Source of the DNA: Thermoleophilaceae bacterium
GTDB lineage: Bacteria; Actinomycetota; Thermoleophilia; Solirubrobacterales; Thermoleophilaceae
Assembly: GCA_044867325.1 (NCBI GenBank)
Contig: JBIOUS010000012.1
Location: 11,771-75,770 of the forward strand
Direction: 5' to 3'
DNA: 64,000 nt
The notes beneath the pieces are model-generated. The model searched no databases and was not told the DNA's origin. It saw only the letters and a list, made by a program, of their open reading frames with translations. Both the position numbers and the translations under genes were made by a program. Positions 49,755 to 49,951 of this stretch are shown piece after piece. Position 1 is the stretch's first letter, and the number at the start of each line of letters is the position of its first letter.

Positions 49755-49845
49755 GGAGGGTGAAGCAGACAGGCGAGCTGCAGGCGGCTGACACCCGTCA
49801 TGTTCGGCTTAGCGGTCGAATCCGGTTCGAGTCCGGCGCCCTCCG
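49755..49845 (+). tRNA. non-canonical tRNA-like gene: type-II (long variable arm), 8-bp acceptor and 4-bp T stem, discriminator G, anticodon GAC (Val codons)
   Basis: - Acceptor: GGAGGGTG (49755-62) pairs with CGCCCTCC (49837-44).
- Linker: AA.
- D arm: GCAG/CTGC with loop ACAGGCGAG.
- Anticodon arm: GGCGG/CCGTC with loop CTGACAC.
- Variable arm: TTCGGCT-TAGC-GGTCGAA.
- T arm: CCGG-TTCGAGT-CCGG.
- 3' end: G49845 followed by CC.

Hand-folded only. Confidence 0.6.
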
Positions 49846-49867
49846 CCGAATACCGCCAGGGTGCGGA

Positions 49868-49951
49868 GTCGAGACTGGGACGAGGTCGCGCTAGAGTGAC
49901 CAGTGGGTGTCAGCCGTCTGCGGGGTAGCTCCCCGCTTCACCAGTCTCGAC
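49868..49951 (+). ncRNA. structured RNA module downstream of the tRNA-like gene (11-bp closing helix and internal hairpins; contains an inverted partial copy of the tRNA-like 5' half)
   Basis: GTCGAGACTGG (49868-78) is the perfect reverse complement of CCAGTCTCGAC (49941-51). An internal hairpin GCGGGG-TAGCT-CCCCGC lies at 49920-36. The segment 49905-49923 complements 49778-49796. Confidence 0.35.

Follow-up and report, generated by a model that had tools for sequence, protein, structure and literature searches.

A stretch of 64,000 nucleotides from a Thermoleophilaceae bacterium (assembly GCA_044867325.1, contig JBIOUS010000012.1; hereafter the window, with position 1 its first letter) carries at 49755 to 49978 an RNA element that combines a tRNA-like domain with its own antisense trailer. 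On balance, we favor the view that this is one small RNA gene, in which an RNA shaped like the 8/4 allo-tRNAs and bearing the anticodon GAC is followed by an antisense mirror trailer acting as a lock in cis and then by a terminator. The trailer is ~120 nt and the whole unit ~225 nt long. As judged from compensatory changes among homologous units, both the cloverleaf and the trailer-paired fold are shown to be maintained by selection at the RNA level.

An earlier, sequence-only reading of the window had described a 19-bp complement of the D and anticodon arms downstream of the tRNA-like domain. This pairing is present: positions 49778 to 49796 (CTGCAGGCGGCTGACACCC) pair continuously with 49905 to 49923 (GGGTGTCAGCCGTCTGCGG) through 17 Watson-Crick and 2 G-U pairs with 0 mismatches. 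The uninterrupted run extends to 21 pairs, the added two being wobbles (49778-49798 with 49903-49923; ends read from the sequence). In 3000 shuffles of the downstream 132 nt, runs of 19 or more pairs never arose (largest, 18; mode, 9). The inverted partial copy of the 5′ half that had also been described was recovered as well, with the reverse complement of 49905-49940 identical to 49761-49796 at 26 of 36 positions without gaps. A repeat search returned inverted arms of 38 nt (49759-49796 and 49905-49942; 74% complementary), and local alignment of the tRNA-like domain with the reverse complement of the trailer module scored 30, compared with 15.9 ± 2.4 for shuffled sequences, none of which reached 30 in 2000 trials. 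When the region from 49740 to 49985 was folded, a check proposed in the sequence-only reading, the minimum-energy structure used the long-range pairing (z-score, -5.06). A 17-nt motif of the arm recurs with 2 mismatches at position 3214, in apparent coding sequence; this match is probably due to chance, as three matches arise in 5 of 100 shuffles.

Homologous units were found in related metagenomes. A pattern scan of metagenome contigs identified a tRNA-like domain, a trailer and a terminator between genes for a major facilitator superfamily (MFS) transporter and a potassium channel (locus L082); another hit of the metagenome scan (L083) was rejected as a chance match in unrelated low-GC DNA. 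Contigs encoding close homologues of the L082 channel supplied further units, either single (L086, L087, L088 [the same as L089], L091 [the same as L092], and L098 to L101) or in tandem pairs in which each unit has its own upstream region and terminator (L095, 558-1144; L096, 558-1144; L097, 492-1082). This gave 11 distinct complete units (window, L082, L086, L087, L088, L091, L095A, L095B, L097A, L097B, and L098), which we aligned with MAFFT without structural input (alignment A4) and to which the comparisons below refer. Other channel-linked loci lack the unit (L090, L093, L094, L102, and L103 to L105), and two hold a deletion remnant (L084, ~965-1040; L085, ~483-560), where the stop codon of the MFS gene directly abuts what is left of the unit, namely, the 3′ part of the trailer hairpin plus the terminator. 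These two loci have lost the tRNA-like domain and the anti-anticodon arm, even though their channel protein shares 91% identity with the L082 protein. A covariance model of the tRNA-like domain detected no second copy in the window and none in 87 loci lacking the unit. Neither BLAST of the unit against plasmids and phage records nor pattern scans of viral contigs gave a match. Used as a protein query, a six-frame composite translation of the unit had no match at E values up to 1, and gene callers leave the corresponding gaps in the relatives empty. The distribution of the unit is sporadic and insertion-like, with tandem duplication and decay.

The alignment supports two folds that exclude each other. 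In the cloverleaf, 97.3% of the alignment cells are paired, and 10 pairs have changed on both sides, to which the anticodon stem and the variable arm contribute 4 each and the D stem 2. The long-range fold consists of a helix between the acceptor region and the end of the trailer (H1; columns 6-11/193-198), the D hairpin, the helix described above (H2; columns 29-43/161-175), and a trailer hairpin (columns 176-181/187-192); here, 97.5% of the cells are paired, and 12 pairs have changed on both sides. For neither fold did any of 500 shuffles reach the percentage paired, the number of pairs or cells changed on both sides, or the covariation score. The number of further pair types was unexceptional in both (136 of 500 shuffles for the cloverleaf and 93 of 500 for the long-range fold). 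Sliding one partner reduced pairing to 37-49% in the cloverleaf and, with shifts of 1 to 3 columns, to 38-52% in the long-range fold. RNAalifold, run on this structure-free alignment, picks the long-range fold as the consensus.

Covariation of the two arms, which the sequence-only reading had named as a test of its own proposal, is evident: taken by itself, H2 has 8 of 15 pairs changed on both sides and 98.8% of the cells paired. The changed pairs include column 43 and columns 35, 36, and 41, which correspond to anticodon-loop positions 32, 33, and 38. With its trailer partner, position 32 forms C-G in six units, U-A in three, and U-G in two; position 33 forms U-A in seven, C-G in three, and C-A in one; and position 38 forms C-G in seven, A-U in three, and U-G in one. 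Because these loop positions are unpaired in the cloverleaf, their covariation with the trailer is not a by-product of cloverleaf constraints. Cloverleaf pairs 29-48 and 31-45, for their part, include columns that take no part in the long-range fold. The 5′ strand of the anticodon stem (columns 29 to 34) therefore has two alternative partners, columns 42-48 or 170-175, both showing changes on both sides; mutually exclusive helices that share one strand and each carry compensatory changes are the mark of a bistable RNA. The 6-bp core of H1 is 92.4% paired and has two pairs changed on both sides, with U-A to C-G, A-U to U-A, and U-G variants. In L088, a U of the acceptor stem has become C, a change that the G of the acceptor 3′ strand accepts and to which an A-to-G change in the trailer corresponds. 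Within positions 49920 to 49923, where the pairing overlaps the trailer hairpin, one position is mismatched in all ten relatives, which puts the conserved pairing core at 15 to 16 bp.

The substitutions also point to the molecule under selection. On the plus strand, the cells of H2 that are not Watson-Crick pairs comprise 12 G-U, 1 A-C, and 1 U-U. Counted by lineage, there are ~6 independent G-U changes versus 1 A-C in H2 and ~9 versus 1 when H1 is included (roughly P = 0.01 to 0.02, given that DNA transitions should yield G-U and A-C equally). That these cells are almost all plus-strand G-U suggests selection on the plus-strand RNA. The inverted repeat also contains the D arm and the trailer hairpin, which separate its two covarying segments, and each of them has a conserved sequence of its own in all units; this lack of homogenization argues for RNA selection over gene conversion.

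Predicted duplex energies show each trailer to be specific for its own tRNA-like domain. The cognate trailer was the best partner in 9 of the 11 units, with a mean of -32.9 kcal/mol compared with -22.0 kcal/mol for noncognate trailers, and the two exceptions (the window and L082) have arms nearly identical to each other. Even tandem neighbors do not cross-fit (-36.1 versus -20.3 kcal/mol and -31.6 versus -18.7 kcal/mol). In forced folds, the locked structure was predicted to be more stable than the cloverleaf plus the self-folded trailer by 2.4 to 15.1 kcal/mol in nine units.

The tRNA-like domain itself has an unusual architecture. ARAGORN calls a 93-nt tRNA-Val(GAC) at 49755-49847. In an Rfam search of 49400-50200, in which overlapping matches from the same clan were reduced to the best one, the match kept at this site was the selenocysteine tRNA (tRNA-Sec) model RF01852, at 33.2 bits (E = 1.3e-4; gathering score, 47), and no match to the canonical tRNA model RF00005 was listed there. 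The tRNA-like parts of the relatives score 30 to 45.8 bits against tRNA-Sec, all below the gathering score. ARAGORN finds no tRNA in L086 (1745-1836) or L087 (1717-1808), although both are clear homologues and L086 has the 45.8-bit score. The sole canonical tRNA of the window is a tRNA-Ala(GGC) at 4192-4265 (63 bits to RF00005), and at gathering score RF00005 matches this site alone (4192-4264). The acceptor branch comprises 12 bp (8 + 4; columns 2-9/84-91 and 69-72/80-83), which are 98 to 100% paired, and a potential ninth acceptor pair (columns 1-92) is disrupted in 2 of the 11 units. The variable arm has a stem of 5 to 6 bp that is 100% paired and accounts for four of the pairs changed on both sides. 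The D stem of the relatives has 6 bp and a 4-nt loop, the window version containing one mismatch and a bulge, and the anticodon stem has at most 6 bp, with a bulge. The discriminator G (column 92) is invariant. The anticodon GAC is likewise found in every unit, while loop positions 32, 33, 37, and 38 vary; its constancy amid varying neighbors suggests a role for the triplet as such, whether in decoding or as a feature that a protein recognizes. The stretch 49723-49736, immediately upstream of the tRNA-like domain (CGGCTTAGTCGTCG), recurs as a 14-nt direct repeat (86% identical) at 49805-49818 in the variable arm (CGGCTTAGCGGTCG); this repeat may reflect chance or be a trace of an earlier partial copy.

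These features place the domain among the allo-tRNAs. In the 8/4 members of that group, the acceptor stem comprises 8 bp and the T stem 4 bp (Mukai et al. 2017, Nucleic Acids Res 45:2776, PMC5389517). According to the available portions of that paper, they were discovered as near misses of the tRNA-Sec model, carry varied and mostly nonserine anticodons, with a valine anticodon in a single case, and often occur near toxin-antitoxin systems or mobile DNA, with regulatory roles suggested as possible. The hosts listed in the available portions of the paper and of a 2020 review (PMC7609411) are Clostridia, Proteobacteria, and Acidobacteria. Our domain resembles allo-tRNAs in its long variable arm, in its D stem of 6 bp capped by a tetraloop, in its extended anticodon stem and discriminator G, and in its nonserine anticodon and subthreshold tRNA-Sec score, and G49845 agrees with the G73 or U73 of the seryl-tRNA synthetase (SerRS) type that marks the group. 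It differs in its host, which belongs to the Thermoleophilia (Actinomycetota). Allo-tRNAs are charged, usually with serine, and act in translation; in the present domain, charging and decoding are putative. Bacterial tRNA-Sec (selC, RF01852) shares the long acceptor stem, 6-bp D stem, long variable arm, and discriminator G, but the anticodon here is GAC rather than UCA in 11 of 11 units and the acceptor branch has 12 bp (8/4) rather than 13 bp (8/5). The tRNA-like domain adds to the allo-tRNAs a member whose phylum and anticodon both had scarcely any precedent in the group.

The features of the unit are listed in Table 1. The perfect closing helix, the GCGGGG-TAGCT-CCCCGC hairpin, and the plus-strand terminator directly after the module, all part of the sequence-only reading, were each found; the perfection of the closing helix is particular to the window, as the relatives have imperfect helices of 9 to 11 bp with an invariant GUCGAG/CUCGAC core and no compensatory change. 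The stem of the conserved trailer hairpin is identical in 10 of the 11 units, with one mismatch in L087. At the site of the variable trailer hairpin, a hairpin of other sequence can be drawn in the relatives (read from the sequences), and the spacer hairpin shows one-sided changes only across the 11 trailers. Folded by itself, the trailer is predicted to form the spacer hairpin, a mirror hairpin, the GCGGGG-N5-CCCCGC hairpin, and the terminator. The predicted mirror hairpin has 4 bp and a 7-nt loop (GUGUCAG in the window) that is complementary to the anticodon loop. A search of the trailer for a known self-cleaving ribozyme or another Rfam family yielded only a weak match of the terminator part to the Pseudomonas sRNA P9.

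Table 1. Coordinates of the tRNA-like domain, trailer elements, and terminator in the window
Feature	Position	Strand	Remarks
tRNA-like gene, allo-tRNA-like 8/4 cloverleaf	49755-49845	+	Discriminator G49845
Acceptor stem	49755-62 with 49837-44	+	8 bp
D arm	49765-81	+	
Anticodon arm	49782-49801	+	
Anticodon GAC	49790-49792	+	Valine codons GUC/GUU; same in 11/11 units
Variable arm	49803-20	+	
T arm	49822-36	+	4-bp stem
Helix H1, tRNA-like strand (GGTGAAGC)	49759-49766	+	Inner acceptor stem, two acceptor/D-stem linker bases, first D-stem bases
Helix H1, trailer strand (GCTTCACC)	49935-49942	+	Complementary to 49759-66
Helix H2, tRNA-like strand	49778-49798	+	D-stem 3′ strand, anticodon-stem 5′ strand, full loop, start of stem 3′ strand
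Helix H2, trailer strand (anti-anticodon arm)	49903-49923	+	GTC (49909-11) opposite the anticodon
Spacer hairpin CCGC-CAGGGT-GCGG	49853-49866	+	Between tRNA-like and trailer domain; in consensus fold of 11 trailers
Closing helix, 5′ strand (GTCGAGACTGG)	49868-49878	+	Perfect 11 bp with 49941-51
Closing helix, 3′ strand (CCAGTCTCGAC)	49941-49951	+	Shares 2 nt with H1 and 4 nt with the terminator stem
Variable trailer hairpin GGTCGC-GCTAGA-GTGACC	49884-49901	+	Seen in window folds
Conserved trailer hairpin GCGGGG-N5-CCCCGC	49920-49936	+	Window loop TAGCT
Terminator-like hairpin	49948-49968	+	9 pairs (8 G-C); T-rich tail to 49978

A plus-strand terminator follows the trailer in all 11 units, and a terminator scan of the window found none between the tRNA-like domain and the trailer. 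Upstream, the relatives share TTGAAG (or TTGTAG or CTGAAT), a variable spacer of 17 nt, and TAGGAT (or TACGAT), whose end lies 7 nt from the tRNA-like domain. We read this region, which is copied along with the unit in the tandem arrays, as promoter-like, although it does not reach the threshold of the consensus scanner. The window has a possible -10 element (TACCGT, 49739-44). At the channel-linked loci, the terminator is followed on the same strand by the potassium channel gene, 29 nt past the T-rich tail in L082 (987-1017) and farther away in L086 to L098, and read-through from the unit into this gene could occur.

In the window, the unit lies between ydcZ (49201-49647, plus strand) and a convergent gene for a flavin adenine dinucleotide (FAD)-dependent oxidoreductase (49991-51154, minus strand), with polA and rpsA beyond. 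In many related species ydcZ and the oxidoreductase gene are direct neighbors, only 14 to 190 nt apart; these are the more distant relatives. Across 80 syntenic loci retrieved via the oxidoreductase, ARAGORN found no tRNA and BLAST no similarity to 49648-49990, except in L001. L001 alone among them keeps a trailer remnant, which shows that the unit was inserted into a variable spot and is not ancestral there. In a very close relative (L002; YdcZ 98.6% and RpsA 99.5% identical), similarity to the window ends at 49651 and restarts at 50018, with 2.6 kb of unrelated genes in between (L002 5117-7722). This L002 insert has three reading frames, two with weak matches to a TRADD-N-associated two-transmembrane domain and a polyketide-cyclase/START-like domain and a third without a match. 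The last ~nine codons of the oxidoreductase gene (49991-50017) lie in the variable segment and depend on the strain, the protein having 387 or 385 residues. L001 (1999-2939) and the metagenome contig L081 instead carry a toxin-antitoxin cassette (MntA-type nucleotidyltransferase and HepT-like RNase) in this gap. In both, similarity to the window starts directly after the stop codon of the cassette, inside the loop of the variable trailer hairpin; the tRNA-like domain is gone, and the 3′ part of the trailer and the terminator remain. A decayed tRNA-like domain upstream of the L001 cassette was sought as well, but the alignment was poor and the covariance model gave no match. By these sequence comparisons, ydcZ and the FAD oxidoreductase gene flank a hotspot of insertion (49652-50017 in the window), and the unit is a small insertion in a strain-variable spot.

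How might the two folds be used? Together with the D hairpin and the trailer hairpin, H1 and H2 would form a four-way junction that excludes the acceptor and anticodon stems of the cloverleaf. During transcription, the trailer arm emerges ~110 nt behind the tRNA-like domain, so the cloverleaf would form first. Once complete, the transcript would relax into the locked fold, its predicted ground state in most copies. In this state the acceptor stem would be hidden from the processing of both RNA ends and from aminoacylation, and the ribosome would have no access to the anticodon, until removal or decay of the trailer frees the tRNA-like RNA. Alternatively, a freed trailer could recapture the mature RNA by a loop-loop contact through its mirror hairpin and then displace the 3′ strand of the anticodon stem. 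As to what the lock controls, we infer that it would set the amount and timing of active tRNA-like RNA.

Several observations weigh against this proposal. The choice between a cloverleaf and a sequestered form, as put forward in the sequence-only reading, is supported by the covariation of both folds, but we infer the toggling itself, the single transcript, and the locked fold from sequence. The locked fold is not uniformly the ground state, being less stable in L097A and L097B by 1.6 and 3.4 kcal/mol. Uncompensated sites occur, namely, a C-A at loop position 33 in L082 and a U-U in L086. U is near universal at tRNA position 33, and C at this position (column 36 of A4; window 49789) in 4 of the 11 units (L082, L091, L095A, and L097A) puts decoding by those copies in doubt; the trailer has the matching G in three of these units, L082 being the one with C-A. 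No -35 element is recognizable in the window, where the consensus promoter scan was negative. Finally, all units come from one order and represent ~8 lineages, so the independent events are modest in number.

The trailer probably arose by inverted duplication of the tRNA-like gene, and to this extent the suggestion of a duplication scar in the sequence-only reading stands, given the colinear, indel-free mirror of the 5′ half and the mirror hairpins. That the trailer is nothing but a scar without function, with the likeness of the arms kept by gene conversion between DNA inverted repeats, we consider quite improbable. The locus does lie in strain-variable DNA and is often disrupted, as by the cassette of L001 and L081, or deleted, as in L084 and L085, and gene conversion too would yield correlated changes in the arms. 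Conversion, however, would have no preference for G-U over A-C, which we observed at 12 versus 1 in H2, and it should have made the D arm and the trailer hairpin alike, yet the two remain distinct and are each conserved. A comparison of the window with L082 shows, moreover, that the spacer has diverged while the trailer arm, hairpin, and terminator are nearly identical. Relatives that keep the tRNA-like gene without the complementary segment, which the sequence-only reading had listed as counterevidence, did not appear: no complete tRNA-like domain was found without the trailer, and both arms are present in all 11 units.

An unlikely alternative assigns the function to the trailer as a small RNA and treats the tRNA-like domain as a handle for RNase P and RNase Z processing or for stability (compare MALAT1/mascRNA), with the pairing guiding maturation or RNase III cleavage. 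It would account for the longest near-invariant block outside the acceptor and T arms, which is the GCGGGG-N5-CCCCGC hairpin plus CTCGACCCGCC, and for the retention of the 3′ part of the trailer in L001, L081, L084, and L085 after loss of the tRNA-like domain; the contiguous helix of 16 to 21 bp also approaches the size of RNase III substrates. An invariant GAC and a compensated 8/4 architecture, variable arm, and T loop nevertheless exceed the needs of a handle, the remnants are in close relatives (flanking proteins 93% and 91% identical) and so may just be young, and the trailer has no evident target besides its own tRNA-like domain, with its specificity tracking the cognate. We give hardly any credence to a role at the DNA level, in which the repeats would either bound a segment whose inversion turns off the tRNA-like gene or fold into a hairpin or cruciform recognized by a recombinase or transposase that moves the unit. 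The occurrence at two unrelated sites (ydcZ/FAD oxidoreductase in the window and MFS transporter/potassium channel in the relatives), the tandem duplication, and the location in an insertion hotspot would fit such a role. But neither the proteins scanned in the vicinity of the unit nor the genes called at the loci of the relatives had a recombinase or transposase domain, the internal orientation is the same in 11 of 11 units, and the inverted state would restore only 5 of 8 acceptor pairs and hence no acceptor stem (read from the sequence). The G-U bias, the promoter-like upstream region, and the terminator suit an RNA, and the unit was not found in the viral contigs, phage records, and plasmids scanned. 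A tRNA-like gene on the minus strand of the module was also considered and rejected, as both ARAGORN and the covariance model were negative and the wobbles become A-C on that strand.

The proposed cis-locked tRNA-like RNA resembles several known systems in part. The 3′ end of hok mRNA, from the type I toxin-antitoxin system hok/sok, pairs with its 5′ part, keeping the full-length RNA inactive until 3′ trimming allows refolding. The geometry proposed here is the same, and the freeing of the tRNA-like RNA would follow this kind of fold-back inhibition, as an analogy only: hok is the mRNA of a toxic peptide and has a separate antisense RNA, while here a tRNA-like domain is locked and there is no reading frame. 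In keeping with this, no listed frame across the unit is conserved (those of the window and L082 carry stops), and the antisense part lies on the same strand within the same terminator-bounded unit, unlike the separately transcribed antisense RNA of type I toxin-antitoxin systems. The sequence-only reading had also invoked T-box riboswitches, in which an RNA element reads a tRNA anticodon by base pairing. This likeness holds as an analogy, but a T-box is a 5′ leader that reads a separate tRNA through a 3-nt specifier and controls a downstream gene, whereas here the element is the 3′ trailer of the tRNA-like RNA itself, the pairing spans 15 to 21 nt and takes in the stem, and the window has no same-strand gene downstream, the nearest one being convergent. 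A T-box-like riboswitch was rejected on account of this position relative to genes and because T-box models gave no match at E values up to 10 in 49400-50200.

In synthetic tRNA precursors under riboswitch control, an attached sequence governs RNase P processing by sequestration (PMC8925977). As far as the available text of that report describes them, these constructs are designed, ligand-dependent 5′ leaders, while the element described here is natural and lies 3′ of the tRNA-like domain. Regulation of a tRNA fold by an adjacent encoded sequence has thus been engineered, but our literature searches found no report of a natural case. The portions of the allo-tRNA paper (PMC5389517) and review (PMC7609411) available to us make no mention of a covarying antisense trailer, and full-text searches for such a self-locking arrangement returned no description, although absence there is no proof. 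The unit is possibly a new type of RNA-only control or addiction module.

One specific version of this idea, which we offer tentatively and regard as rather unlikely, is an RNA-only addiction or gated-mistranslation module in which the released tRNA would put serine at valine positions throughout the proteome and the cognate, cotranscribed trailer would serve as the antidote. The moment of release would then be set by unequal stability of trailer and tRNA or by an RNase activated under stress. The tRNA-like domain has G1-C72, G2-C71, A3-U70, G73, and a long variable arm, which by established identity rules would correspond to the set that bacterial SerRS reads. In five window genes, GUC ranks fifth in codon usage, with a frequency of 57 per 1000 codons and a 70% share of the valine codons. 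A tRNA(GAC) charged with serine would be a hazard to the cell, and this would explain the presence of a lock.

tRNAs are usually treated as constitutively folded adaptors. Two covarying alternative partners for one strand are the kind of evidence that defines riboswitch-like switches. Because ARAGORN misses L086 and L087 and the Rfam thresholds miss all units, the unit is probably absent from most annotation. It offers a handle on the purpose of allo-tRNAs with "wrong" anticodons and on how cells tolerate them. If the lock does gate a mistranslating tRNA, the unit would represent a natural design for conditional recoding, useful in genetic-code engineering.

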